Below, piece by piece: positions 3,253 through 18,080 of a stretch of DNA of 32,000 bases. Source of the stretch: Candidatus Heimdallarchaeota archaeon B3_Heim (GTDB lineage Archaea > Asgardarchaeota > Heimdallarchaeia > Hodarchaeales > Hodarchaeaceae); the NCBI GenBank assembly GCA_003144275.1, contig NJBF01000023.1:39190-71189 (forward strand), given 5' to 3'. The notes beneath the pieces were generated by a model. It made no database searches. It saw only the letters and a program-made list of their open reading frames with translations, and was not told where the DNA came from. Each line of letters starts with the position of its first letter. Positions within the stretch are counted from its first letter, which is position 1. Both the position numbers and the translations under genes were made by a program.

Positions 3253-3495
3253 TTATAAGAATGCAAAGAAAAGTGCTAGGATAAAAAATACACCCATAAT
3301 AACAATAAGAGGGAGAAAAATCGTTTGCATCATGGCAATAAAAAGTGCGAGGTAATCTTTCTTTTCTAAGGTTACACCAGCAATCTTGTTGTCCTTAGGT
3401 TCTTTAAAAAGTGAGAGCTGATGAGGATTAGTGGGAATAGTTGCTAATTGCTCTTCAAGACTCTCTTTAGTGCTCTTATCATCCGAACTAATAAT
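3253..3495 (-). CDS. Unannotated ~80-aa small membrane protein at the end of the opp operon, probably with a non-canonical ATT start
   Basis: Hand translation gives IISSDDKSTKESLEEQLATIPTNPHQLSLFKEPKDNKIAGVTLEKKDYLALFIAMMQTIFLPLIVIMGVFFILALFFAFL*. It has a hydrophilic N-terminus and hydrophobic C-terminus, a GGTG SD-like motif ~7 nt before the ATT, and lies between the oppF stop and the terminator. Confidence 0.7.
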   Translation of the reverse strand: MISSDDKSTKESLEEQLATIPTNPHQLSLFKEPKDNKIAGVTLEKKDYLALFIAMMQTIFLPLIVIMGVFFILALFFAFL

Positions 3496-3510
3496 TTCTC
3501 AACACCTTTT

Positions 3511-4545
3511 TTATCTGAAATGACATGCTATTGAATGTCCGCTTTCTTTCTGTTCCAATTCAGGGACTTTCTCAGAACAGATAGCTCTAGCTTCAGGACA
3601 TCGTGTATGGAATACACATCCAGGAGGGGGATTAGCAGGACTGGGAACATCGCCTTTTAAAAGAATAACATTCCTTTCTAAACTAGGATCTGGGATAGGA
3701 ACTGCTACTCCTAATGCACTTGTATATGGATGGACCTTTGATTTTTCCATAGTGAATATCTTTTTAGACCCGACTTCCAAAATCTTTCCCAAGTACATAA
3801 CCAGGATAATGTCAGCCATATGAGTTACTACCGAGAGATCGTGACTAATGAACATATAGGTCAAATTTCGACGTTTTTGAATGCGTTTAAAAAGATTCAA
3901 TACTCTGGCTTGAACAGATACATCTACAGATGCTGTAGGTTCATCTAAGACAAGTAAATCAGGATTCAAAACCAACGCTCGTGCGATACATACTCTTTGT
4001 CTCTGTCCTCCGCTAAATTCATGAGGAAAACGATTTAAATGTTCTTTATCCAGACCAACTTCTCTCATAATTGCTAACACGTAGGGGTTAATTTTTCCTT
4101 TAGGAATTGTTTTATGAACGCGTAAAGGTTCTGTTAAAATATTTCTAACAACCATTCTGGGATTTAAACTTGCGTATGGATCTTGGAATACAATCTGCAT
4201 TCGTTTTCGATACTTACGAAAGTGTCGTTGAGGAATGGTAGATACATCCTTATTGTCAAAGATAATTGTACCTGAAGTTGGTTCAACTAATCGCAATATT
4301 GTTCTTCCTAAAGTAGTTTTACCACACCCTGATTCACCGACAACCCCAATTGTCTTTCCTCTCGGTACTTCAAAAGAAACGTGGTCAACTGCATGAACCC
4401 AACCGATAACCTTACTCAATACGCCGCCCGTGATTGGAAAAAATTTCGTTAAATCCTTTACTTCGAGAAGATTCCCATGTTCTTGTATTTCTGGGGATGT
4501 CTCCTGTGATTCTTCGACATTCTGTGTTTGACTCATAGCTCTCAT
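3511..4545 (-). CDS. oppF: Oligopeptide ABC transporter ATP-binding protein (OppF/DppF)
   Basis: Walker A GESGCGKTT, Q-loop FQDP, signature FSGGQRQR, Walker B LVLDEPT, H-loop ISHDL and C-terminal oligo_HPY motif (HPYT..CVFHTRCP..C..HSIACH). The start is likely ATG 4545 or 4536, just after the oppD stop, not 4584. Confidence 0.97.
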   Translation of the reverse strand: MRAMSQTQNVEESQETSPEIQEHGNLLEVKDLTKFFPITGGVLSKVIGWVHAVDHVSFEVPRGKTIGVVGESGCGKTTLGRTILRLVEPTSGTIIFDNKDVSTIPQRHFRKYRKRMQIVFQDPYASLNPRMVVRNILTEPLRVHKTIPKGKINPYVLAIMREVGLDKEHLNRFPHEFSGGQRQRVCIARALVLNPDLLVLDEPTASVDVSVQARVLNLFKRIQKRRNLTYMFISHDLSVVTHMADIILVMYLGKILEVGSKKIFTMEKSKVHPYTSALGVAVPIPDPSLERNVILLKGDVPSPANPPPGCVFHTRCPEARAICSEKVPELEQKESGHSIACHFR

Positions 4546-4547
4546 CT

Positions 4548-5606
4548 CTATATGTGCTTGTACTCCTTCTCTCGGACATGACACGCAACAAAATGATTTG
4601 GTCGCAATTCTAACAATTTTGGCTTAGTAACTGTACACAAATTCTCTTTTACGTCTAAGTTTTTTTCAGCAAGATAACAACGAGGGTTAAACCTACAGCC
4701 TCCAGGAGGATTCACAAGATTTGGAACAACACCAGGAATCGAATCGAGTTTTTCTTTGGGAGCATGTAGTAGAGGAATTGCTTTCAAAAGACCTTTAGTA
4801 TATGGATGAATAGGGTCTTTAAAAGCTACCATTGTAGAAGCCACTTCCACAACCTGACCGCCATAAAATATAGCCACACGATCACACATTTCTGCAATAA
4901 TACCAAGATTGTGTGTTACAAAAATTAATGTGGTAGTTAGGTCGTCTTTTAGATTTTGCAGCAATTTGAGAATCTGGGCTTGAATTGTTACGTCAAGGGC
5001 AGTAGTAGCTTCATCTGCAATCATTACATCTGGTTTACTGGCAATTGCCATCGCTATCATAACACGTTGACGCATTCCTCCAGAAAGTTCATGGGGGTAC
5101 CTAGAATAAAGGCCCGCAGCATCAGGAAGGCGAACCAGCTCGAAAACTTTAGTAACTTCTTCTTTCAGAATTTGTTTCATTTCCGCCTTTTTGACTTTAT
5201 CCTTTTCGGCATCAGTTAAGCCTGGGAGGCCTTGATGTAGCAGAATTACTTCCGCGACTTGTTCTCCAACAGTCATCAATGGGTTCAGAAAAGTCATTGG
5301 ATCTTGGAATATCATAGCAATTTTTTTTCCCCGAAGTTTCCTTACATCTTCTTCATCCATCTGAAGAATATCTTTGTCTCTGTACATAATCGTACCATTG
5401 ACAATCTTGCCAGGGTCTTCAATCAAACGCATAATTGACCTAACAGTGACAGATTTTCCACATCCAGTCTCGCCAACAAGTCCTAAGCTTTCTCCTTTGT
5501 AAACATCAAATGTAATTCCATCAAGAGCTTTTACTACTCCGTCATAGGTGAAAAAATGGACTCGAATATCACGTAGTTCTAGTACCGTATCTTTAGATTC
5601 GATCAT
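4548..5606 (-). CDS. oppD: Oligopeptide ABC transporter ATP-binding protein (OppD/DppD)
   Basis: Walker A GETGCGKS, IFQDP, LSGGMRQR, IADEATTALD, VTHNL and HPYT..GCRFNPRC..FVACH. Confidence 0.97.
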   Translation of the reverse strand: MIESKDTVLELRDIRVHFFTYDGVVKALDGITFDVYKGESLGLVGETGCGKSVTVRSIMRLIEDPGKIVNGTIMYRDKDILQMDEEDVRKLRGKKIAMIFQDPMTFLNPLMTVGEQVAEVILLHQGLPGLTDAEKDKVKKAEMKQILKEEVTKVFELVRLPDAAGLYSRYPHELSGGMRQRVMIAMAIASKPDVMIADEATTALDVTIQAQILKLLQNLKDDLTTTLIFVTHNLGIIAEMCDRVAIFYGGQVVEVASTMVAFKDPIHPYTKGLLKAIPLLHAPKEKLDSIPGVVPNLVNPPGGCRFNPRCYLAEKNLDVKENLCTVTKPKLLELRPNHFVACHVREKEYKHI

Positions 5607-5622
5607 CTTATACCAACCATTA

Positions 5623-7485
5623 TTACCGTCGTATTTTTGGATCCATTACATCTCTCAATCCATCGCCAATAAGATTGAAGGCTAGCACGATTAGGAAGAT
5701 AACTAGGCCTGGGAAGAAAACAAGCCATGGTGCTTGAATAAAGTACTCTCTTCCGTCAGCAATCATTCTTCCGAGTTCTGCATCACCTGGATTTGCACCA
5801 AATCCAATGAAGCTTAAACCTGCTGCAGTAAGCACAACTCCACCTAAATCTAACGTGGCTGCTACAAGTAGCGGATAAAGGCTATTTGGTAATACATGTC
5901 TGAAAATTATACGTGTATTACTCAATCCTACAGCTCGGGCAGCTTCGACATATAGCTTATTTTTTTCGGATAATACTTGGCCACGGGCAATTCGAGCATA
6001 ACCAGCCCACCACACAACAATTAAGGCAATAGACAGATTGAACATATTCTTCCCAAGAGCGGCGGCAATGGCCATAGCCAATATTAATCCTGGAAAAGCA
6101 AAGAAAACGTCAGTAATCCGCATCATCAGGTTATCTACCCATCCACCGTAATACCCAGCAATAGCACCAATTATAGTTCCTACTACAAGTGCCCAAGTAA
6201 CAACCCAAATAGCTAGCGTCAGGTCTAACTGGAGTGCCCAGATACATCGACTGAAAATATCACCACCGATGGCATCTGTTCCAAATATTAAAGGTCTACC
6301 GTCAATCTCTGTATACTGCTCTGCGTATGTTACTTCACCTTGGCTAGAAAATACGATCAGGTCACTCATATTATCCTGATTAAAATCACACCAAAGGAAA
6401 TCGACACCAGGTACTTCTTCTAAAACTGGAAAAGAGAAAGTCACATAAAGACTATCTTTATCCATTTCTAGAAAGTTTGGTGAGAGTTTTAAGCCAATTG
6501 AGGTATAATAATAGTAATGACCAGAATCGAAAATAAGGATCATATCCCAACTCTCTGTTGGATTTATGTGTAAGATATCTACTCTGATTGAACCTGTACC
6601 TAACCCTTCTAATGGCAATACTTTGTCGTAGACGTCTAGTGGAGCGTCTTCATTGAGCTCAAGTTCCCATATTTCATGACGCATCATTGAAGCGTCATTT
6701 ATGTAAACGTAAACCTTGAAATCAGTTGAACCTACAACCAGATCGATCATATTATTGCTATCGCGATCGAAGTTAACAAGTGTAGGGTGAGCTTGTCCCG
6801 GAAAATGAAGAATACTGCCAGTACTATTTCGCACTAAGGAAAAATCGGTCCAGTTTGCGTTGTTGGGCGTTCCTTGATTTATACTCCTGTAGAGATATCC
6901 ATCATCACCACCGATCATTAAGTCGGTAACATTGTCACGATTCATATCTCCTGTAGTAGGACTCACTCGTGTAACATTTTCAGGTAATGTTGGAAACTGG
7001 TATGAAGTATTTAAAACCCATTCGTTTTCTCCAGCTTCTTCGCCAATATTCTCATAATAGAGTAATTGGCTATCGTCAGTCCCTAAAAGAACGTCTATTT
7101 TTGTATCGTTATTTAAATCAACAAGCCAATTCCGAACGAGAATATCTTCATCAAGTTGAAATTGGTCTGAAAGATCTGAATAATCTGTCCAAAGGAGATA
7201 TTTTCGTGTATCAATTGCCCCAGGTGGTTCTTGTTTTAGAATTCGTCCTTCCAAAGGATCCAGAAGAAACTCTTTGGGTCCATACGGGGTAATCGTAGGA
7301 GCCAATAGAGCGATAATCACTAAAAATGATATTGTCCCAAAACCGAAAAGAAAGAGAGGACTCTTTCGTAAGAGGGAAATACTGTGTCTAATTTCTTTTC
7401 CCCTTGTTCTTAAAGTTTCTCGGAAGCTAAATATTTCTGAAGGTACATCTTCATCAAGCATATCTAATTCATAACCAGTTGTCAT
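5623..7485 (-). CDS. oppC: Oligopeptide ABC transporter permease OppC/DppC with an inserted FG-GAP/VCBS-repeat domain (620 aa)
   Basis: N-terminal TM1 ending APTITPY..PP, then FGTDAIGGDIFSR, GYYGGWVDNLMMRITDVFFAFPGLILA, EAA motif YVEAARAVGLSNTRIIFRHVLPN and APWLVFFPG. A ~306-aa repeat insert spans 6301-7218. The start is taken as ATG 7485 (RBS GAAGGAGG); the 7566 start would overlap oppB. Confidence 0.93.
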   Translation of the reverse strand: MTTGYELDMLDEDVPSEIFSFRETLRTRGKEIRHSISLLRKSPLFLFGFGTISFLVIIALLAPTITPYGPKEFLLDPLEGRILKQEPPGAIDTRKYLLWTDYSDLSDQFQLDEDILVRNWLVDLNNDTKIDVLLGTDDSQLLYYENIGEEAGENEWVLNTSYQFPTLPENVTRVSPTTGDMNRDNVTDLMIGGDDGYLYRSINQGTPNNANWTDFSLVRNSTGSILHFPGQAHPTLVNFDRDSNNMIDLVVGSTDFKVYVYINDASMMRHEIWELELNEDAPLDVYDKVLPLEGLGTGSIRVDILHINPTESWDMILIFDSGHYYYYTSIGLKLSPNFLEMDKDSLYVTFSFPVLEEVPGVDFLWCDFNQDNMSDLIVFSSQGEVTYAEQYTEIDGRPLIFGTDAIGGDIFSRCIWALQLDLTLAIWVVTWALVVGTIIGAIAGYYGGWVDNLMMRITDVFFAFPGLILAMAIAAALGKNMFNLSIALIVVWWAGYARIARGQVLSEKNKLYVEAARAVGLSNTRIIFRHVLPNSLYPLLVAATLDLGGVVLTAAGLSFIGFGANPGDAELGRMIADGREYFIQAPWLVFFPGLVIFLIVLAFNLIGDGLRDVMDPKIRR

Positions 7486-7498
7486 ACCATTTCCTCCT

Positions 7499-8704
7499 TC
7501 AATCATACCTAATTCTTGGGTCAACAAAAGCATACAGAATGTCCACAAGGAGATTGCTAAGCACATAGATTAATGCGGTAACCATAACAAACCCTTGAAT
7601 TGCTGCAATATCTAAGTTTGATACCGCGGTTACGGCCCATCGGCCAATTCCTGGCCAGTCAAAAACCGTTTCAGTTAATACGGTTCCAGTTAATAACCCA
7701 GCTAAAGAAAGCCCTGCTATAGTAAGCGTAGGAATTAATGCATTCTTTAATGCGTGCCGGTATATAATTACTCTCTCAGAGAGACCTTTAGATTTTGCAA
7801 GTAAAATGAAATCTTGCCGCATTGTTTCAATCATGGCCATTCTTGTCATTCTTGTAATGAGCGCCATTTGTACCCATGCAAGACAAAATGCTGGTGGGAA
7901 AATGTGAATTAATGCATCAATAAACAGCTCCAAGCTCACGAGAATTGATTCGAGAGCAGGAACTCCTGCGGGTAAATACAACAGATTATCAATTAAGTAA
8001 AAACCAGTTGTCGGTATTGGTCCAAGATCTAAAAATGGTAGCAAATTAAGGAGGCCTACTACTGCACCAAGGATATTATCCTCCTTCGCAAAAAATTTAT
8101 TTACATTATACCGCTCATGATAAGGCATTTTAATTCCAAGACCTAAATCTTCAAAAATCATATTAGAATTAAATATCAATACTTGTAACATTAGACCAAG
8201 CCAGAATATTGGCATGGAAACACCAGATAATGCTGTAATTCGAGAAATTTGATCTGGTAGTTGATCCTTTCTAGTTGCGGATACAATACCGAGAGGGATA
8301 CCAATGACTACAGCAAAAATCATCGAAAATATGGCTAACTCCGCAGTAGCTGGGAAACGGGTTATAATTACGTCTAAAACAGGTAGGGGAGGCCGAAACG
8401 AGGCCGAAACTCCCAAATCTGGAGGTCTTAAGTACCAAGACCCTATATTTGTAAGCTCTGGCGTTTCGAGTGGCCAAAGCCGTTGAAGATACCTAATATA
8501 TTGTATGTGAAGGGGTTGATCAAGTCCTAGTTGTTCTGTTAAGAGTTGAATCCTTGCTTCTGTTAATCGATCTTGATCTTCTCCGATATACGAAGCAATC
8601 GGGTCTCCAATGCTATTGGAGAGAATAAAACTCATAATACTAACCCCGAACATTACGGGGATTAACAATAACAGTCTTTTTATCGCATAGTCTCTTAATT
8701 TCAT
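7499..8704 (-). CDS. oppB: Oligopeptide ABC transporter permease OppB/DppB
   Basis: YAIKRLLLLIPVMFGVS..GDP, LGLDQPLHIQYIRYL, RFPATAEL, SMPIFWLGL, TGFYLID, EAA-like FILLAKSKGLSERVIIYRHALKNA, ETVFDWPGIG and DPRIR. Confidence 0.96.
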   Translation of the reverse strand: MKLRDYAIKRLLLLIPVMFGVSIMSFILSNSIGDPIASYIGEDQDRLTEARIQLLTEQLGLDQPLHIQYIRYLQRLWPLETPELTNIGSWYLRPPDLGVSASFRPPLPVLDVIITRFPATAELAIFSMIFAVVIGIPLGIVSATRKDQLPDQISRITALSGVSMPIFWLGLMLQVLIFNSNMIFEDLGLGIKMPYHERYNVNKFFAKEDNILGAVVGLLNLLPFLDLGPIPTTGFYLIDNLLYLPAGVPALESILVSLELFIDALIHIFPPAFCLAWVQMALITRMTRMAMIETMRQDFILLAKSKGLSERVIIYRHALKNALIPTLTIAGLSLAGLLTGTVLTETVFDWPGIGRWAVTAVSNLDIAAIQGFVMVTALIYVLSNLLVDILYAFVDPRIRYD

Positions 8705-8987: not shown

Positions 8988-9479
8988 TTAAGAATCCAAT
9001 GGCTTTTGATTTAGATGAATGTGGATTTTCTTTCGCGTAGTTCCTAGATAGATAAAGCCTATAATCAATATAATAGGTCCGATTATTGAAAGAACAAAAC
9101 CTATCTGGAGAGCAATCGGATTTTCAAGACCGATGGAGGATGCCTTTGTATATGCATTAAAAATATCTTTTATAACAAAGATTATTCCAACAAACGAGCT
9201 CATAAATGACAACGCTAGAATAACCATCACATTTTCTAGCTTTTTATCAATATCTATGGAGTTTAATTTGCCTAAATAGTTATATCCCAGAAACCCTCCA
9301 GTAAACACCATCAACGTGCCAAATGTCAACGTTAGTGATTCAGTAAAATATAAATTCCCTCCAGTTAACTGTAATACTACGTTTTGATCGTGACGTATTG
9401 ATATAAAGGGTATACTTAATCCAATTAGAGAGAAAAGTCCACTAGACGTGAAAAGCAGGAATAAGATTTTTTGTCTCAT
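8988..9479 (-). CDS. Hypothetical 4-TM membrane protein (163 aa from MRQKILF)
   Basis: Four hydrophobic segments. The start is moved to ATG 9479 because the 9578 start overlaps the upstream gene. Confidence 0.7.
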   Translation of the reverse strand: MRQKILFLLFTSSGLFSLIGLSIPFISIRHDQNVVLQLTGGNLYFTESLTLTFGTLMVFTGGFLGYNYLGKLNSIDIDKKLENVMVILALSFMSSFVGIIFVIKDIFNAYTKASSIGLENPIALQIGFVLSIIGPIILIIGFIYLGTTRKKIHIHLNQKPLDS

Positions 9480-9537
9480 TTTTATTTCATCAGTAAAAGT
9501 CAACGATGTACCTCTTTCATACAAGTCTTTAATAATT

Positions 9538-9834
9538 TCAATATATATCTTTTTTTGTATAATAGATAATAAAACCAATAATTAGTAAAACAATGGCAAT
9601 ACCCATAAGAATAATCGAATTAAATGTTAACTGGTTCGCCAAATCACGATAGTATATTGCCGCTCCAACATGACCCGCTTCAAGATAAAATTTCAAATTA
9701 TCAATACAAACACCGCTTGCTAGCAAAAAGGTTAAAGAAAGAAAGATCAGGGGGATAGCAAGAAAGACAAAGTATTTCTCTTTTTCCCTCTTTGGTTTAC
9801 TAATCTTTAAAATTGGAGTATCTACCATTTTCAT
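9538..9834 (-). CDS. Small hypothetical 2-TM membrane protein
   Basis: 98 aa with a basic N-terminus and two TM segments. Starts 10 nt after the permease stop (RBS-like GAGGT). Confidence 0.7.
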   Translation of the reverse strand: MKMVDTPILKISKPKREKEKYFVFLAIPLIFLSLTFLLASGVCIDNLKFYLEAGHVGAAIYYRDLANQLTFNSIILMGIAIVLLIIGFIIYYTKKDIY

Positions 9835-9844
9835 ATACCTCTTG

Positions 9845-12616
9845 TTATTTAATTACGAAAATACCTTCACCAAGCAGCATTCCTCTTATGATAATTATAA
9901 TGAGGAATATAACAATGATATAATATAGAATCATGATTAATTTGGATAGATGACGGAAATAGGCTGGAATGAGAATATTCTCAAACGAGATCAGTTTGGG
10001 TAGATCAAGTTTTTTTAACATTTGTTCCGTTAAAGAGCGAATAGGACGGGCTGATATCGTTGCTACAACTTCTTTCTGGCTAGATTTATATGCTGGAATG
10101 ATTGTACTCGCTATTGTAAATAGAAACGAGACGAATAACCACAATGCAACATGGTCAAGTGGAAAATTCAATGTAATAGGAATACTCAAGGAAATATACC
10201 ATACGAGTAGGAGAGCACTAAATAATCCATCAAAAAAACCAAAAAATAGCGCGGTTATACCTAACGTCACCGATTCAACTAGAAAAATTGTAAATACTCC
10301 CCATTTCGATAAACCCATGCTACGCATAATTCCCATCTCCCTCTCCATTTGCAGAGTGGACATCAACACACCGACAAATTGTGCAATTCCTGCGAGAATA
10401 AATGTCTCAAAAAAGAGAATTTGAAATAAATTTGCCTGGAAGATTAGACTATTTTCAATGATTTTGCCATAATGCCCAATACCGATAACTTCTTTTAGAA
10501 AGGGGTATGTAAGTGACAAGTTCCCTTCAGTCTCCGACAGACTAAAACCTTCTATTACATCACAGACGAATAATTGAGCTAAGGAGGAGTTGAATAGTTC
10601 TTGAAAATAAGAAGTTCCAATATACAGATATCTTCCATTACCCAGAAAAATATTTCCTTTGATAATTGCTGCTATACGTATATTTACAGTGTTGTTTGAA
10701 GATGTTTTCATTGATATATTAGAACCCATCGGCTTATTAATTGCACGATATAGATCTTCTGAAATTAAAGAGTTTATAATCGAAGGAGCAGAGGTGTTGG
10801 TTTCTAAAAATTGAAAGCTTGGTACGTCTAAGATTGAATCGTAAACATTTTCAGCAAAAATTGAATACTGAGTTGGATCAACTCCATATACGTAGCCATT
10901 GGATTCACTAATCTCAGTTCGTATTTCTTGAACGTATGCAACTTGTTTTATACGTTCATTTGCGAGTAAGCTTTCGGAAAAATTGATTGCTTGTCCAGGG
11001 TCATTCGCTTTGACTACTAGATCGACATTTCCCCATTGCCCCTGGTAATATTGGGGAACACTAGCTATTATAGTCGAAGAAACAACTCCTACCAATATAA
11101 TAAATGTTAACGCAATAGAAGATGTCATTATTGTAAAGAATGATCTCTGGAATTCACGTGCAATATTCCTCATCGAGATAAGACCTAACCGTACTTTAAA
11201 GGTCTTGAAAAATAATTCTCCAGCTTTGGGTAAGAAGAATAATAATCCTGCCTCAACAAAAAGTGTCCCAGCAAAAATCAAGACAATTGTCATAAATTGA
11301 ATAGAAAACAAAGAAAAGTCTAGGAATTGCGTGGTACTCGAAAAATTAGATAGAAAATAACCAGTAAAAGCCAAGACAATTCCAATAATTACTGTATATC
11401 TCCAGTACTCTGGAAGAGAAGATTTTTTAGCTGTTCTTATTTTAGAATGAATATTTTGAATTATAGGTTCCCGTATAATTAAATATAAAGGAAAAATTCC
11501 CGAGAAAAATGCCACTAGAATACCAGAGAGGAAGACCGTAATAACAGAGGCCGGATTAATAAGCACAGCTTGGAAATCTAAACTTGGATAAAACTGATCG
11601 ATTACACCAACTAATAAATTAGAGAAACTTATTCCAACGATTACACCCAAGATTCCACCGATGACGGAATACACAAGAATTTCATAGAACAATAGTAAAA
11701 ATACTTGTTTTGTACTAATTCCAACAGTTCGAAGAATACCATACTCCTTTTGTCTTTCACGCACAGCAATTGTCAGGATATTAGTGGTAAAAAGAAATTC
11801 TACAAGTAAGGATGCAAGAATTACAATATTCATTGCAATGGAATATGCTTTTATCCCAAGGACTTGGAGTTCAGAAATTTCCTTTCCTACAAATACATCA
11901 TATTCTGGACCAAGAAAGTCTTTGATATTTTCCGAGATCTTTCTAATCTCAATGAAATCTCTGGTTGTAACATCTATCCTCATATTTAACGAGTCAATTT
12001 CTGGTGTAATCTCAAATAAATCAAGCATTGTGTTTATATCAATTAAAATAACAGCAAAAGCTTCTCTATTTCCAAAGAATGGTGGTGCCGAAAATATTCC
12101 TCCAACAATTAATTCAGCACCTTTAAATCCAATTTCTGGTAATTGAGGTAACTCTATTGTTTCTCCCAATGATAACCCCATAAAATCTTTAACCGTCTGT
12201 GAAATTATGATAGTACGTCCGACACCAGTCCTAAACCCCTCGGTGACATTCAAAATTGGTACATCAGGATGAGAATGGAAATTTACACCATATATTAACG
12301 CATTAACAGGATATCCAGTTTCATTCTGTATCACATCTGCTGAGATATAGTATACTTCAGAAGCTTTTTGAACCCCTGGCACAGAGTGAACTTTAGATGT
12401 AAGATTTTGTAATTCAGCTAAGCTTACCCACTTTTTCGGATGAACACTTATATCAGAATAATTTTGGTTTCGGTTATCAAAAAGAAAATCTGCGTAAATA
12501 GTGTCAACTGTTACAATTACTGCCATCTCTAGAGCAAGAGTAACGGTTATTCCGAATATTAGCAGAAATGATCTTTGTTTTGAGCGAAAAACATTTCTAA
12601 ATGCTAGCTTAAGCAT
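9845..12616 (-). CDS. MacB/FtsX-like ABC transporter permease, internally duplicated (type VII ABC-like)
   Basis: Two homologous halves, LAFRNVFRSKQRSFL...RERQKEYGILRTVG and ISMRNIAREFQRSFF...EREMGIMRSMG, each with a large extracytoplasmic domain. Start is ATG 12616 or GTG 12625. Confidence 0.9.
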   Translation of the reverse strand: MLKLAFRNVFRSKQRSFLLIFGITVTLALEMAVIVTVDTIYADFLFDNRNQNYSDISVHPKKWVSLAELQNLTSKVHSVPGVQKASEVYYISADVIQNETGYPVNALIYGVNFHSHPDVPILNVTEGFRTGVGRTIIISQTVKDFMGLSLGETIELPQLPEIGFKGAELIVGGIFSAPPFFGNREAFAVILIDINTMLDLFEITPEIDSLNMRIDVTTRDFIEIRKISENIKDFLGPEYDVFVGKEISELQVLGIKAYSIAMNIVILASLLVEFLFTTNILTIAVRERQKEYGILRTVGISTKQVFLLLFYEILVYSVIGGILGVIVGISFSNLLVGVIDQFYPSLDFQAVLINPASVITVFLSGILVAFFSGIFPLYLIIREPIIQNIHSKIRTAKKSSLPEYWRYTVIIGIVLAFTGYFLSNFSSTTQFLDFSLFSIQFMTIVLIFAGTLFVEAGLLFFLPKAGELFFKTFKVRLGLISMRNIAREFQRSFFTIMTSSIALTFIILVGVVSSTIIASVPQYYQGQWGNVDLVVKANDPGQAINFSESLLANERIKQVAYVQEIRTEISESNGYVYGVDPTQYSIFAENVYDSILDVPSFQFLETNTSAPSIINSLISEDLYRAINKPMGSNISMKTSSNNTVNIRIAAIIKGNIFLGNGRYLYIGTSYFQELFNSSLAQLFVCDVIEGFSLSETEGNLSLTYPFLKEVIGIGHYGKIIENSLIFQANLFQILFFETFILAGIAQFVGVLMSTLQMEREMGIMRSMGLSKWGVFTIFLVESVTLGITALFFGFFDGLFSALLLVWYISLSIPITLNFPLDHVALWLFVSFLFTIASTIIPAYKSSQKEVVATISARPIRSLTEQMLKKLDLPKLISFENILIPAYFRHLSKLIMILYYIIVIFLIIIIIRGMLLGEGIFVIK

Positions 12617-13243
12617 TGAATTCACTGTAACAGTTATAGTTCTCTATAAAGGAATTTCAGAAAAACTCTATTTAAGAGTAAATCGTTCAATGCACTCCTA
12701 ATTGGTATGTGTTTAATTGCTTACTGATGAAGGAATCAAATTACCATAACTAAATTTGTCAAACAACTATTTAGCAAATAGTTCTGGACAAGATGAGTCA
12801 CACATCCGCTATCAGGCAGGTTAGCAACAGGAGAATGTATGCTTTCCATTGGGACTACTTGAAACAAATCTATTTGAAACATCCCAAACACCATTGATTT
12901 TCCACCAGATTGGCCATTCTTCTCTTGCCTTTGACGGGTAACTCGTCTAACGTAGTTACAAGAAATTCTGACCTAAGAGCTAAGAAGATTTTTTTGTCAT
13001 CACCTCGGGGTTGAACACGTATGGGAGGGAGGCCTTTTAAGATTGTGCGAGAGAGGTCAGCGAATACAAGAGATATTCCTTTGTCGGACAAAAATAATAA
13101 GGGTAAGATAAGAATGACTCGTGTACATTTGGAAGAAAACACTCAAAGAATAGCCATTAATATTTCAATTTAAACTAGCAATCTGTGAAATTTAGTATTT
13201 AAACATAAATTTTGTCTTCTTTACATATACGTGGGAACTTCCA

Positions 13244-14554
13244 GTGGATATTATTACAGGTTTACTACTAACAGGCATTTTTTTTATTATATTAGTTTTA
13301 ATTGCATCCGAAAAGTTTGACAAGGTATCTATAACTCTTGTAGGCGTTGTTGTTACAGTTATCGTTGCGAGTTCAGTAAATTTAATTCGAGAAATAAACA
13401 TCGTATACCAATGGCTTGATATCGAACTTATCATGACCATTGTGGGTGTTACGATAATAATGGAGATGTTGAAATCTTCAGGGTTGTTAGAAGTATTTAT
13501 ACTTTATATATTAAGAAGTATTAGAGGTTCCTTCTATGTTCTTACCATGATATTATCTCTTTCCGTATTAGTGCTGAGTATGATGATTACCAATGTTTTA
13601 GCATTAATCATTGTATCTTCTATCACAATTCTCATTGCTACTATTGCTGAATTTGATCCTAAACCTATATTGTTTCTGGAACTTGTTTATTCCAATCTTG
13701 CGGGCATGCTAACTCCTATCGCTTCCTATACAGCAGCATATGTTTCATTAGAACAGAATTGGTCTTATTTAGACTTCCTCATTTTGAGTTTACCTTTTGT
13801 GGTCATAATGGTTTTACTAACAATCCCTGTCACCTATTATATGTTTAAAGACTCATTTATGGCAATGAAAGAAAAAGAGAAAACATTTGGAATTGAACTC
13901 CAACGTCTTCTCCATACAATTGATCCATGGAGTTTTGTTGATTCGCGTAAGGATTTCTATAAAGCAACTATCATTTTTATAATAGTTACAATATTTCTTG
14001 CGATTGGAACATCAGTAGGATTCAGTGTAGATGTCATTTGTATTGGAGGGGGTGTTATTGTGTTGATCTTCTTTTCTGATCACGTAGATTCATTCATAAG
14101 AGCAGTTGACTGGCCAATGCTCTTTTTTTTAACGGGAATCTTCATTATGTCAGGACTTATTCAACTTACAGAAATACCTCTTCTTCTTGAAGAACCAGCA
14201 CTTAAATTAATTGAAATTTCTCCAGAAATTGGTATAGTGACTTTTTCAGGAATTCTCGGGGCACTAACAAGCATAATTGAAAACATTCCCCTTATATTTC
14301 TTTTACGTCCTGTAATAGACCTTCTTAGTAACAATACAGACCCTAGAATTGTATGGTGGACAATCCTTGCAGTAGTAAATATTACAGATTCAGTTATTCT
14401 TATTAGCAGTGTAAAAGGCATCTATATTATGGAGATGAGCCATAGAGAGGGAATTCCAATCACTTTCATGGAATATTTTCGATATGGTTTATCAATCACG
14501 GGGATACACTTGATTGCGATGGCACTTTATGTTTTTGTTTTATTTCTCCTCTAG
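13244..14554 (+). CDS. ArsB/NhaD (IT superfamily, SLC13-like) permease with divergent motifs
   Basis: 436 aa, ~11-12 TM, GTG start. Family-typical stretches include DKVSITLVG, IDWPMLFFLTGIFIMSG-like VDWPMLFFLTGIFIMSG, SIIENIP and GIPITFMEYFRYG. Confidence 0.8.
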   Translation: MDIITGLLLTGIFFIILVLIASEKFDKVSITLVGVVVTVIVASSVNLIREINIVYQWLDIELIMTIVGVTIIMEMLKSSGLLEVFILYILRSIRGSFYVLTMILSLSVLVLSMMITNVLALIIVSSITILIATIAEFDPKPILFLELVYSNLAGMLTPIASYTAAYVSLEQNWSYLDFLILSLPFVVIMVLLTIPVTYYMFKDSFMAMKEKEKTFGIELQRLLHTIDPWSFVDSRKDFYKATIIFIIVTIFLAIGTSVGFSVDVICIGGGVIVLIFFSDHVDSFIRAVDWPMLFFLTGIFIMSGLIQLTEIPLLLEEPALKLIEISPEIGIVTFSGILGALTSIIENIPLIFLLRPVIDLLSNNTDPRIVWWTILAVVNITDSVILISSVKGIYIMEMSHREGIPITFMEYFRYGLSITGIHLIAMALYVFVLFLL

Positions 14555-14609
14555 AGCTGAGCTACCTTTATCAAATCCTTTCTTCCATGAGAGCGATTGG
14601 TGTTGTTCT

Positions 14610-17600
14610 ATGTCTGAAGTTCAAAAGGAATTAGAAAAAGCTCAAGCTTTTGAAACAACAGGAAATTTCGAAAAGGCTGCAAAATCGTATCTCCAAATTG
14701 CCAAAAGTATTCCAGACGGGCAAAGAAGTTTAAAACTCTATAATAAAGCATTTTTTTCATCTCAAAAAACGGGAAAAAACGCCTTGATGTTCGAGTATGC
14801 ACGACTTTATTATCAACAGCTTTTACAAGAAGAACAACATAAAGCTATCAAAGAACTTCTCCCTACTTTCCTGGATCTATCTGGTCGGATACGAGATAAA
14901 ATTGACGAACTTAAAGTGGAAGGTAAACTAGAAGTTTTAACTTGGGCATTAGATTTATATCAGCTTGCTGGTAACCAAATAGGGGCATATGAGATTAGTC
15001 AAGATATAGGCGACACCTATTTTGTCTTTGGGAAACAATTGTTATCGTCTGGTCATCTCCTAGGAAAGGAAGAAAAATACAATAAGGGTGTTGAACTTTT
15101 TAATCAAGCTATCGAGAGCTATCAGTTGATTTCACTTGATACAACAGTTATGGAGAAAATTCTTGTTGTTAAACTTGAAAAAATCAACCGTTTCATTGAC
15201 ATAAGTCGCCCAGCCGAAGCAATGGAAGATACTGCAAATCTAATGCGTTATTTTAAGACACTGAATGTTGATATTCGTCCCTATTCCCAAAAAGATCTTT
15301 CACTCAGAATTGCGGAATTATTAGCAACAAAAACCTTAGAAAAAGTTCAGAAACAAATTGATATTGCTCGAGTATTACAGAAAACTGCAAGTGCTGGTTT
15401 TATAGAAGCAGAAGAGCCAGGAAGGGTGGCTCCCTTTCTATGGTCGCTTGCTCAAATTTTTGATAAAAACAATAAGATAGAAGACTTTGATACCACAAGT
15501 AATGAGGCATTTAATGCGGCCATTAAAAATGGTAACCAAGACATTGCAGAAAGTATTCTAACCTATTTGTTTGACCAGGGAAAATCGATTTGTGAAAATA
15601 CTATCAATTCACGGATGTTATTAGTAAAAAAGGGGTCGGTTGAATTTCGAAATAATAAGGGTGTCCAATACTTACTCCAACGAATCAAATTAGCGAAAAC
15701 AACTGACGATGAAATCGTAAATCAAACTACTGAATATTTGTTCAATTATGGTCAAACGATGTTTGATAAAAAACTTCGGGTACGTTCTCTTCCATATTTT
15801 GAATATTGCGCGCGTACATGGTGGGATTTACATCAGGATACTGGACGAGCGAGAGAAATCACTACTTTTTTACAAAGCAATTTTGGTGATTTACTAAGTG
15901 AAGGAAAGCTTGATGATGCTGCAACCCAATTAATATCGATCGTTGATTTATTCACGTACTTTGGAGATACAGAAATGGCTGGAGATACAGCTTTTTCTTT
16001 TGCTCAAACTCTTGGTCAAGAAGGAAAAATATCTTATGAGTATGACTTTCTAGAACGATCTTATGCGAATTTTGAGAAATTAAAAGCAACAGAGAAATTG
16101 CAATCATTGATTGATTATCTTATTGAACGTTCTGATCCCTTATTCTCTCATGATGAGAATATGAAAGACAATCTTCAGAATTTTCTCGAATTGATAAGCA
16201 AAACTGGAGCTGCAATCTCAATTGAAAGGCAGGGAGAAGTATTAGCTACAACAACATATAAATTGATTAACAGTAGCTTGATGGATCTTGCATCAAAGTA
16301 CGTAGAAGAAACGTTTGCAATATACAGTTCTTACGATAAGGAACTAGCAGCAGATTTCTATTTCAAAATTGGTACAATGTTAATAGAGAATAATCAAGAG
16401 TTAGCGATTGAAATTATTTCAAAATCGACCCAATTAGCCGCGGATGAATCAGAGCTTGAACAAATTGTTCTTAGAAATCTTCAATATTTAATGGATCAAG
16501 CTCTGGCCTCACCTTTACTAAGAACTAAGCTGCTAATTATTAACCAGCTGGAAAGCATTTCTTCTCTTGTTCATAAAAGTGCAATTTTCAATACATTCCT
16601 CTTTCCATTCGTTCAGAACTTAGCAGAAAAAGCTATGGAACCGGAATATTTATCAGAAACGAATAGATATCTAATGAAAACCTTTACAACATATTTTGAG
16701 GAAGATAATTCACATCCACACTTGGAAGAGATTATTGAGTGGACTAACAAGTTTATTTTAAGCTTGGATCAACCTCATCTACTTACTGAGATGATTCTCT
16801 TAAGTCTGAATTTCCACGAAAAAACCAATAAACCAGATCAATTTATCACTTTTATTTGGCCTATTATGGAGAAACTGTCATCAGAGAAGGAAGACTTCCA
16901 GAAAGCAATCACAATTTATAGACAAACATTTTCCTTCTTGAAACGTCTTAATGCTGAAAATGAAGAATTCACAGATAAAGTCGTATCCTTACTTGATCGC
17001 GATCAGAAATCAAGAATTCATGATGAGCAATTTGAAGAAGCTTGGGCTATTCTTCAAGCTCTATTTCAAATTCTCACGGAAACAGATATGAAAACTCAAG
17101 CTGTGCGATTATATAAGGATAATGCAGTTCTATTTGCCCCTCTTCGATTAGATCTCGCCTTAACAATGTGGGCTCAGGCCAGTGACGAAGCCAAATGTCT
17201 TGAAAATTCAAGGGAAGTAATTGGTGGAATTTGTTCAGATATAAAAGAACATGGATTAACGGTCTACAAAGAACAGCAAAATCTACCTGCTGTACTTCAA
17301 CTCTATAATCAGATCATAGAATTAAATTTAGCCATTGAAAATCTAGTAGGTGTTACGGATAATAGTATTGAGCGTTCAAAATATCTCCTAATGACGGGAG
17401 ACTTCACATCGTTATTAGAATGGGGAGAAAAAAGTCTTCGATTGAGTATTGAGAAGAAACTAATAGATCTTCTTGTGGAAATCACAAATATGTTTTATTC
17501 TGCAGGAAGGAGCTTACTTGAGGAAGATCCAGAAGTAGCCATTACCCTGATTAATACCGCATCAAAGAACTTAAAAGCTTTTGGGGAGAAGGGAATAAAC

Positions 17601-18080
17601 ATATATTCTACTAAAATTGCCGAAATTTATGAAGAATTGTATAGATCACCCATTGGCAATCAATTAGCAATATCGGAAAGAGAAAATCTGCTAAGACATT
17701 TTAAGGAGAATAATCAGAAGCAAGAAGAGGCAAAATTTCTTTTAACCTCCGCAAAAATAGCATTTACAGAAAATAATGTCAGTGATGGAATCGATCAAAT
17801 TTACAAATCAACAACACTATTTCAAGATCTAGAAGATAAGAATGGCCTATCCGAAATAGTTACTTTTTGTTTAAGAACTGCTTCACGATTTCAAGTAGGA
17901 TCTCCAGAATATAATTCGTTGTCACAACATGCTACGGCAATTCAGGATGGAGGAATTACTCTGTCTGATGAACAAACACAAGAAGCTTTTGGAGATTTAT
18001 ATGATGGAATCCTAGATGATATGACCACGTTATTTGATCCAAAAGAAAAGAGAAAACGGATGAAACAGAAAAAGAAATGA
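14610..18080 (+). CDS. Large soluble alpha-helical repeat (TPR/SNAP-like solenoid) protein, 1156 aa
   Basis: All-helical amphipathic pattern, N-terminus AQAFETTGNFEKAAKSYLQIAK, recurring A..F/Y...A..F helices, no TM segment and a polybasic tail KEKRKRMKQKKK. Start ATG 14610; the 14514 start overlaps the upstream gene. Confidence 0.8.
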   Translation: MSEVQKELEKAQAFETTGNFEKAAKSYLQIAKSIPDGQRSLKLYNKAFFSSQKTGKNALMFEYARLYYQQLLQEEQHKAIKELLPTFLDLSGRIRDKIDELKVEGKLEVLTWALDLYQLAGNQIGAYEISQDIGDTYFVFGKQLLSSGHLLGKEEKYNKGVELFNQAIESYQLISLDTTVMEKILVVKLEKINRFIDISRPAEAMEDTANLMRYFKTLNVDIRPYSQKDLSLRIAELLATKTLEKVQKQIDIARVLQKTASAGFIEAEEPGRVAPFLWSLAQIFDKNNKIEDFDTTSNEAFNAAIKNGNQDIAESILTYLFDQGKSICENTINSRMLLVKKGSVEFRNNKGVQYLLQRIKLAKTTDDEIVNQTTEYLFNYGQTMFDKKLRVRSLPYFEYCARTWWDLHQDTGRAREITTFLQSNFGDLLSEGKLDDAATQLISIVDLFTYFGDTEMAGDTAFSFAQTLGQEGKISYEYDFLERSYANFEKLKATEKLQSLIDYLIERSDPLFSHDENMKDNLQNFLELISKTGAAISIERQGEVLATTTYKLINSSLMDLASKYVEETFAIYSSYDKELAADFYFKIGTMLIENNQELAIEIISKSTQLAADESELEQIVLRNLQYLMDQALASPLLRTKLLIINQLESISSLVHKSAIFNTFLFPFVQNLAEKAMEPEYLSETNRYLMKTFTTYFEEDNSHPHLEEIIEWTNKFILSLDQPHLLTEMILLSLNFHEKTNKPDQFITFIWPIMEKLSSEKEDFQKAITIYRQTFSFLKRLNAENEEFTDKVVSLLDRDQKSRIHDEQFEEAWAILQALFQILTETDMKTQAVRLYKDNAVLFAPLRLDLALTMWAQASDEAKCLENSREVIGGICSDIKEHGLTVYKEQQNLPAVLQLYNQIIELNLAIENLVGVTDNSIERSKYLLMTGDFTSLLEWGEKSLRLSIEKKLIDLLVEITNMFYSAGRSLLEEDPEVAITLINTASKNLKAFGEKGINIYSTKIAEIYEELYRSPIGNQLAISERENLLRHFKENNQKQEEAKFLLTSAKIAFTENNVSDGIDQIYKSTTLFQDLEDKNGLSEIVTFCLRTASRFQVGSPEYNSLSQHATAIQDGGITLSDEQTQEAFGDLYDGILDDMTTLFDPKEKRKRMKQKKK

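Follow-up and report, generated by a model that had tools for sequence, protein, structure and literature searches.

The 32,000-nucleotide stretch of DNA analysed here (i.e. positions 39,190 to 71,189 of contig NJBF01000023.1 from Candidatus Heimdallarchaeota archaeon B3_Heim; hereafter the window) contains an oppC-type permease gene whose 620-residue product carries, between its first and second transmembrane helices (TM1 and TM2), an inserted ectodomain that is predicted to be a compact five-bladed beta-propeller of the FG-GAP/VCBS class. The gene was shown to encode the OppC-type subunit of a complete type I ATP-binding cassette (ABC) importer of the peptide/nickel family (i.e. PepT-type) in a Hodarchaeales-level Asgard archaeon. 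The favoured function of the insert is that of a docking platform for OppA, the substrate-binding protein (SBP) of the importer, similar to the P2 domain of MalF, and was given a probability of about 0.45.

An ectodomain inserted in the TM1-TM2 loop of an OppC-type permease

The permease portions of the window protein were assigned to the OppC/DppC family using Pfam and NCBIfam and were compared with solved structures by phmmer and Foldseek. Two Pfam domains flank the insert, namely OppC_N at residues 39-72 (26.9 bits as compared to a cut-off of 23.9) and BPD_transp_1 at residues 436-620 (125 bits). Comparison with Escherichia coli DppC (8z1v_B) by phmmer aligned residues 48-78 with DppC residues 35-65 and residues 399-619 with DppC residues 79-299 (E 6e-53), so that TM1 and the pre-TM2 motif are separated by 320 residues (79-398), as compared to 13 in E. 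coli DppC. A preliminary description, made from the sequence alone, had placed an insert of about 306 residues (positions 6301-7218, i.e. residues 90-395) exactly in this loop of an OppC-type permease and had noted that normal OppC proteins have only a few residues there; both statements agree with the alignment, by which the insert is slightly longer. The comparison set of solved structures comprised E. coli DppC (8z1v_B and 8z1w_B), E. coli OppC (8z21_B), and Mycobacterium tuberculosis OppC (8j5q_C) and DppC (8wd9_C). Residues 399-619 matched these solved chains with phmmer E-values of 6e-53 to 6e-38, and the Foldseek alignments had 43-44% identity over 216-219 columns. The solved proteins share with the window protein the OppC_N TM1, the BPD_transp_1 core, the pre-TM2 motif and an operon that also encodes OppB, a pair of oligo_HPY ATPases and an SBP of family 5, but have about 13 residues from the PYxP motif after TM1 to the pre-TM2 motif as compared to 320 propeller-folded residues in the window protein. 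In all solved cases the TM1-TM2 loop of OppC is a short linker.

The open reading frame (ORF) spans positions 5623-7566 of the reverse strand and contains a second in-frame ATG upstream, at 7566. The start is probably the ATG at 7485 and not that at 7566, since Met 28 of the longer frame marks the point from which most homologues extend.

In the Dpp importer, the regions between TM1 and TM2 of DppB and DppC face the periplasm and are the site at which DppA caps the two permeases (PMC12136057). Five Arg/Lys residues lie within residues 22-33 of the window protein, directly before TM1. Across all 17 proteins with this architecture (i.e. the window protein and the 16 relatives described below), the insert contained 4-11 N-X-S/T sequons, the core 0-2 and the N-terminal part none. 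Because the insertion site maps to the periplasmic TM1-TM2 region of DppC and the insert is enriched for sequons, the insert is predicted to be extracytoplasmic, in agreement with the preliminary description.

The insert is predicted to be a five-bladed FG-GAP/VCBS propeller

The five repeat strings originally read from the sequence, four of them clear and one degenerate, were all located in the translation (approximately residues 121-148, 177-205, 235-264, 313-331 and 364-385), and their assignment to FG-GAP/VCBS repeats was supported by profile models. FG-GAP_3 exceeded its Pfam cut-off of 26.9 bits with both the whole protein (32.0 bits) and the insert alone (37.6 bits), and FG-GAP PF01839 (cut-off 22.1) did so with the insert alone (23.4 bits; 19.7 with the whole protein). 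A profile of the insert produced 13,707 matches at E<=0.001 in a representative library, mostly multi-repeat FG-GAP/VCBS proteins, and most matches showed 5-17 matched stretches through profile positions of about 41-200. The exhaustive profile list is dominated by giant multi-repeat proteins and holds no names, and FG-GAP-permease fusions beyond the clade are not countable from it. A word-indexed search with the insert alone returned only eight proteins and nothing new. The motif D-x-[ND]-x-[DN]-x-x-x-D starts four of the five repeats (at residues 123, 180, 240 and 367) and is only partly kept in blades 3 and 5 among the relatives. In integrin FG-GAP repeats, Ca2+ is coordinated by loops of this type.

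An AlphaFold2 (AF2) model of the insert alone, built from 19 aligned sequences, was all-beta with a mean predicted local distance difference test score (pLDDT) of 88.5 and a predicted template modelling score (pTM) of 0.86, in line with the propeller fold that had been anticipated. The strands of the model fall into five sets of four. An N-terminal strand (residues 95-99) probably completes the last set, thereby closing the ring and joining both ends of the insert; this closure is deduced from the strand count. The ends of the insert would thus be brought together, as insertion into a loop requires.

The model was compared exhaustively with 48,161 representatives of the PDB. Five-bladed enzymes of glycoside hydrolase (GH) families GH43, GH62, GH32 and GH130 ranked first, with Z scores of 12.6-16.2, root-mean-square deviations (rmsd) of mostly 3.3-4.3 A and 220-258 aligned residues; the best of these five-bladed matches reached a Z of up to 16.2 at 3.3-3.8 A over 235-254 residues. 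Re-scoring of the 978 alignable chains among the Foldseek top 1000 gave the same picture, with the 50 best all being GH43/62/32/117/130-type or related enzymes, which are five-bladed propellers. No integrin chain was among these 50 best of the 978 (lowest listed Z of 12.3), even though integrins headed the Foldseek ranking itself. The local Foldseek matches, i.e. integrin alpha heads, CRTAC1, the lectin PVL, TcB and BBS7, superposed poorly, with template modelling (TM) scores of about 0.4 and rmsd values of 8-9 A. In the AlphaFold database the best matches were small prokaryotic predicted VCBS-repeat proteins (TM scores of 0.70-0.72), and A0A2T1LRG1, a predicted VCBS protein of 297 residues, reached 0.72-0.77 (0.77 by the hit).

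Two other affinities were considered and rejected. A GH43-like enzyme was discarded on finding no glycoside hydrolase family in Pfam at E<=1 and only 5-12% identity to the five-bladed enzymes in the structural alignments; on the model, the likeness to GH43/GH62/GH32 enzymes is limited to blade number and geometry. A link to the eukaryotic BBSome was discarded since Beta-prop_BBS7 and BBS2_Mid scored 20-24 bits against a cut-off of 27 and gave the same hits on unrelated FG-GAP proteins; the BBS7/BBS2 matches were treated as a probable likeness at the level of the repeat.

With the known FG-GAP/VCBS propellers (i.e. integrin alpha head, CRTAC1, PVL and small VCBS proteins) the insert has in common the repeat family, the Ca-loop-like motif and blades of four strands. 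The integrin alpha head and PVL are seven-bladed. Their target chains have about 400-450 residues, whereas the insert has 320 residues, five repeats and five predicted four-stranded blades. Moreover, neither the thigh and calf domains of integrin alpha nor a beta-subunit partner were found in the window protein using Pfam, and permease helices flank the insert directly. The earlier label of integrin-alpha-like therefore holds for the repeat and not for the assembly, given the five blades, the poor superposition on integrins and the absence of integrins from the 50 best re-scored chains.

Distribution, selection and domain traffic

Sixteen other full-length proteins (616-677 residues) had the same architecture and aligned end to end with the window protein at 47-84% identity. 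Across these relatives identity was 31-75% in the insert and 71-96% in the membrane core, and the source names of the close homologues were 'Candidatus Heimdallarchaeota archaeon' and 'Candidatus Hodarchaeales archaeon'. A six-frame search detected the fused form in 6 of 83 genomes of the class, all at the level of Hodarchaeales. Five of these were among the 22 genomes of the genus-level group of the window; the sixth, in which the gene is cut by a contig end, was one of two genomes of a second family. None of the 59 genomes of five other families contained the fused form; these assemblies are incomplete and the absences soft. Two more OppC-type ORFs, both of the usual length (328 and 307 residues), are present in the genome of the window. 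A tree built from the C-terminal 225 residues placed all 17 propeller-bearing proteins on one side of a branch with support of 90/78 that was present in 90% of bootstrap trees, indicating that the insertion probably had a single origin.

Selection was examined by comparison with the 84%-identical orthologue, which gave a ratio of non-synonymous to synonymous substitution rates (dN/dS) of about 0.07 for the insert as compared to 0.02 for the membrane core; both values are rough, as dS is saturated. The low ratio is a clear sign of purifying selection on the insert. Among metagenomes, the only holders with shares above 0.2 were from marine sediment and cold seep (0.23-0.36), hinting at a habitat of this kind. 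In a sediment metatranscriptome library (X12), contigs 90-99% alike covered parts of the gene, including positions 6161-6981; these derive from a related strain, and DNA carry-over is possible.

Free-standing forms of the propeller (374-419 residues; P0128, P0137 and L024:871-2127) were recovered as single-stretch, full-length matches to the insert profile. In each, the same propeller follows a signal sequence and is connected by a stalk to a C-terminal transmembrane anchor with a basic tail, and one copy sits amid unrelated methyltransferase genes. The free forms were nested within the fused clade at two separate places in the propeller tree (support of 99/100 and 99/95), requiring at least two changes of state. 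On the simplest reading of this tree, the insert was released from OppC twice and would therefore have a use of its own.

Further OppC paralogues from this genus and order (563-597 residues) have unrelated inserts of about 280-310 residues in the TM1-TM2 loop, none with a Pfam match. An OppC protein of an 'archaeon' (P0093) has about 340 residues at the same loop, and OppC proteins of Thorarchaeota and other archaea are also enlarged. These cases mark the TM1-TM2 loop of OppC as a hot spot for ectodomain insertion. Neighbours in the ESM Atlas, all below 0.9 (0.85-0.87) and to be read as leads only, included long OppC-like clusters of 751-752 residues from Thermoplasmatota and a mostly bacterial OppC-like cluster of 585 residues, 12% of whose members carry PSII_BNR, another propeller family. 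A further protein of 814 residues (P0102) is an OppC-type permease (OppC_N; BPD_transp_1, 97-280) fused C-terminally to a complete family-5 SBP (SBP_bac_5, 375-726).

Possible roles of the propeller

In the E. coli maltose importer (MalFGK2-MalE), the P2 loop of the permease MalF folds into a periplasmic domain that has a dissociation constant of 7-22 uM for MalE and stays attached to it throughout the transport cycle (PMC6906923). By analogy, the propeller would sit on the permease as a self-contained, outward-facing knob, adjoining the surface where the SBP caps OppB and OppC, and would act as an accessory docking platform that holds the membrane-tethered, probably glycosylated OppA beside the translocator. 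Loaded OppA could thereby engage OppBC efficiently without a closed periplasm, while Ca2+ would probably stabilise the propeller and have no part in transport. The likeness to MalF P2 lies in a large, independently folded extracytoplasmic domain within the permease of a type I importer, for which a role in binding the SBP is proposed here. The two nevertheless differ in fold (Ig-like as compared to a predicted five-bladed propeller), in size (about 185 and about 300 residues), in position (between TM3 and TM4 and between TM1 and TM2) and in system (a sugar importer and a peptide-type importer). Cultured Hodarchaeales are obligate peptide degraders that consume higher-molecular-weight peptides and whose peptide SBPs are heavily N-glycosylated (bioRxiv 10.1101/2025.02.26.640444). 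OppA of the window has a signal peptide and a Thr-rich stalk, and its C-terminus, in which a PGF-type motif precedes a hydrophobic helix and the sequence RKRRR, is a PGF-CTERM-like anchor of the archaeosortase type. OppA relatives of about 1030-1050 residues also exist.

An interaction between OppA (residues 30-668; 35-row alignment) and the propeller (19-row alignment) was assessed by complex prediction with three controls. The pair scored 0.55 as compared to 0.00 for the best control, a verdict of weak support; the runs agreed in at least 62% of contacts, and the partner pLDDT was at least 80. In the calibration of the tool, 58 of 80 solved complexes and 2 of 110 mismatched pairs attained the mark. 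The passes with scores of 0.60 or less comprised only seven of the 80 solved complexes but both of the mismatched pairs. The score of 0.55, together with a reasonable geometric prior, produces a modest shift towards docking of OppA.

Several points weigh against the docking proposal. A pass of the 0.55 type would more often be wrong than right unless the prior is good, and the complex prediction reported no interface. The full-length AF2 model was confident for the insert and had a pLDDT below 50 for the membrane part, and does not allow a reading of where the propeller lies with respect to the surface on which OppA docks. The putative binding of Ca2+, with loop-like motifs retained in two to four blades, and the putative glycosylation of the propeller, with its sequons, are each read from motifs alone. 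The free copies located away from opp genes suggest that the propeller can work unattached to a permease. Finally, the NCBIfam equivalogs NikC, Opp1C-Opp4C, GsiD, DppC and OppC all scored below cut-off (the best being Opp2C with 257.9 bits as compared to 300), leaving the substrate class open between peptide and metal/opine.

The propeller could instead be an autonomous ligand-binding module, i.e. a lectin or a device for capture of glycopeptides or polypeptides, concentrating glycans (of OppA, the envelope or substrates) or long peptides at the importer. Capture of large substrates, docking of OppA and a link between adhesion and peptide uptake had been raised as possible roles in the preliminary description. 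The FG-GAP propeller lectin PVL with GlcNAc ligands (4up4 and 2bwm) is among the Foldseek matches, five-bladed propellers that act on carbohydrates share its global geometry, anchored free copies have descended at least twice from the insert and lie away from opp genes, and both the use of larger peptides and the heavy glycosylation of SBPs in Hodarchaeales would suit such a function. This possibility was judged less likely than docking: the insert matches no glycoside hydrolase or lectin family at E<=1, is only 5-12% identical to the five-bladed enzymes, and has as its most conserved positions the structural FG-GAP and Ca-loop residues.

A passive structural element with no specific ligand, serving as a spacer, a shield or an envelope contact under an S-layer or glycocalyx, was judged quite improbable. 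The unrelated inserts in the same loop of other OppC paralogues and the enlarged proteins of Thorarchaeota and other archaea imply that the loop tolerates or favours bulk of differing kinds, and the insert has evolved much faster than the core. The pattern of conservation, however, makes a passive role less likely: the dN/dS of about 0.07 denotes strong purifying selection, Ca-loop residues are invariant among inserts that are as little as 31% identical, and the domain was kept after its release from the permease. An artefact (i.e. an assembly chimera or a mis-called frame) or a decaying, non-functional insertion might be suspected from an assembly of 103 contigs that is 94% complete and 3.9% contaminated. 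This explanation is refuted for practical purposes by the same continuous frame in the 16 other proteins, drawn from NCBI, ENA, JGI and Logan assemblies and including a closed 3.16-Mb contig, by metagenome contigs from marine sediment and cold seep, which belong to related strains (90-99% alike), span most of the insert and show neither insertions nor deletions, and by the high model confidence and low dN/dS.

The opp operon and its neighbours

The coordinates of the importer genes, of the parts of the window protein and of the paralogues with unrelated inserts are listed in Table 1. Operon order was conserved in four other loci (L014 and L016-L018). L016 and L018 contain oppB, oppC with FG-GAP repeats, oppD, oppF, an ORF of 83-85 residues and an oppA of 708-741 residues; the oppA of L017 is located upstream of the operon and is codirectional with it. 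L014 had no oppA within 8 kb, but this does not show that the gene is missing. Replacement of the SBP by the propeller was considered and rejected because a cognate OppA adjoins the operon in the window and in three of the four other loci (L016, L017 and L018); the propeller is an addition to a complete importer set and not a substitute for the SBP.

Table 1. Positions of features in the window and of related OppC genes in other loci
Feature	Coordinates	Strand	Remarks
oppC-type permease gene, 620 aa	5623..7485	(-)	ATG at 7485, stop at 5623-5625, coding 5626-7485
Residues 1-78	7252..7485	(-)	Cytoplasmic N-terminal tail, basic stretch, TM1 (about 43-65), conserved PYGP motif (OppC_N)
Residues 79-398	6292..7251	(-)	Inserted ectodomain, 320 aa; predicted five-bladed FG-GAP/VCBS beta-propeller
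N-terminal strand, residues 95-99	7189..7203	(-)	Probably completes last blade (model secondary structure, strand count)
Blade 1, residues 117-158	7012..7137	(-)	D123-x-N-x-D127-x-x-x-D131; positions 1 and 9 Asp in 17/17; position 5 Asp in 15/17, Asn in 2/17
Blade 2, residues 174-219	6829..6966	(-)	D180-x-N-x-D184-x-x-x-D188; positions 1 and 9 invariant; position 5 Asp in 16/17
Blade 3, residues 233-278	6652..6789	(-)	D240-x-D-x-N-x-x-x-D248; D248 alone invariant
Blade 4, residues 300-341	6463..6588	(-)	Degenerate repeat without Ca-loop motif; D314, S321 and G322 invariant
Blade 5, residues 362-394	6304..6402	(-)	D367-x-N-x-D371-x-x-x-D375; D367 invariant
Residues 399-620	5626..6291	(-)	Permease core: pre-TM2 motif, TM2-TM6, coupling helix; aligned to E. 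coli DppC 79-299
oppB-type permease, 401 aa	7499..8704	(-)	Outside loops enlarged, length varies by lineage
oppD-type ATPase	4548..5606	(-)	ABC_tran + oligo_HPY (Pfam)
oppF-type ATPase	3511..4584	(-)	ABC_tran + oligo_HPY (Pfam)
oppA-type family-5 SBP, 715 aa	773..2920	(+)	Convergent to operon
OppC paralogue with unrelated insert	L022:512-2206	(+)	
OppC paralogue with unrelated insert	L021:37-1827	(-)	
OppC paralogue with unrelated insert	L023:1283-2971	(-)	
OppC paralogue with unrelated insert	L020:632-2407	(+)	

OppB has a lineage-unique segment of 16 residues in its N-terminal periplasmic domain and an extended loop inside BPD_transp_1; its orthologues have 358-414 residues, and the L018 copy has an extra hydrophobic insert of about 50 residues. 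An ORF of about 82 residues with a single transmembrane helix (3253-3498, reverse strand) lies directly downstream of oppF. Homologues of 83-85 residues occupy the same position in L016, L017 and L018, with 41-49% identity and an invariant motif around K-D-x-x-A-L, and the window copy has no ATG, GTG or TTG near its start. This small ORF may encode a sixth subunit or an accessory protein of the opp system.

Upstream of oppB are genes for a multi-pass membrane protein of about 165-196 residues (8988-9578, reverse strand) and a 926-residue permease of the FtsX/MacB type (9845-12625, reverse strand). Both the FtsX/MacB-type gene (907-926 residues) and the small multi-pass gene precede the opp operon in L018, and the FtsX gene is also found in L014; no ATPase partner for the FtsX/MacB-type permease was seen nearby in the window. 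An ORF of 1188 residues (14514-18080, forward strand) had no Pfam match at E<=0.001. In L017, the most divergent locus and one derived from a soil metagenome, a separate FG-GAP protein of 510 residues (L017:3844-5376, forward strand) is encoded about 900 bp upstream of oppA.

Implications for peptide import in Hodarchaeales

Opp and Dpp importers are textbook systems whose structures have been solved only recently, and a conserved folded propeller at the OppC loop implies an extra step of SBP docking or cargo capture that is missing from current models. No paper joining OppC or other ABC permeases to FG-GAP repeats or propellers turned up in the literature searched, most subscription journals being outside it, in keeping with the earlier impression that this fusion had not been described. 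The domain appears to have travelled in both directions, with one insertion into a permease loop and later at least two releases as an anchored surface protein.

Hodarchaeales belong to the lineage of the closest known archaeal relatives of eukaryotes. As obligate peptide degraders with heavily glycosylated peptide-binding proteins, they would have Opp systems that are central to their physiology. A broader idea, unlikely as it stands, is that propellers of unrelated families (i.e. FG-GAP here and possibly BNR-like elsewhere) have been repeatedly recruited to the OppC loop and reflect a general and unrecognised function of these importers, namely that of a stationary receptor at the translocator entrance, which would retain there either the tethered, glycosylated OppA or peptide cargo that is long or glycosylated. 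If this were true, such receptors would be part of the machinery by which Hodarchaeales live on peptides alone, and the escaped free-standing copies would be surface receptors with the same specificity.

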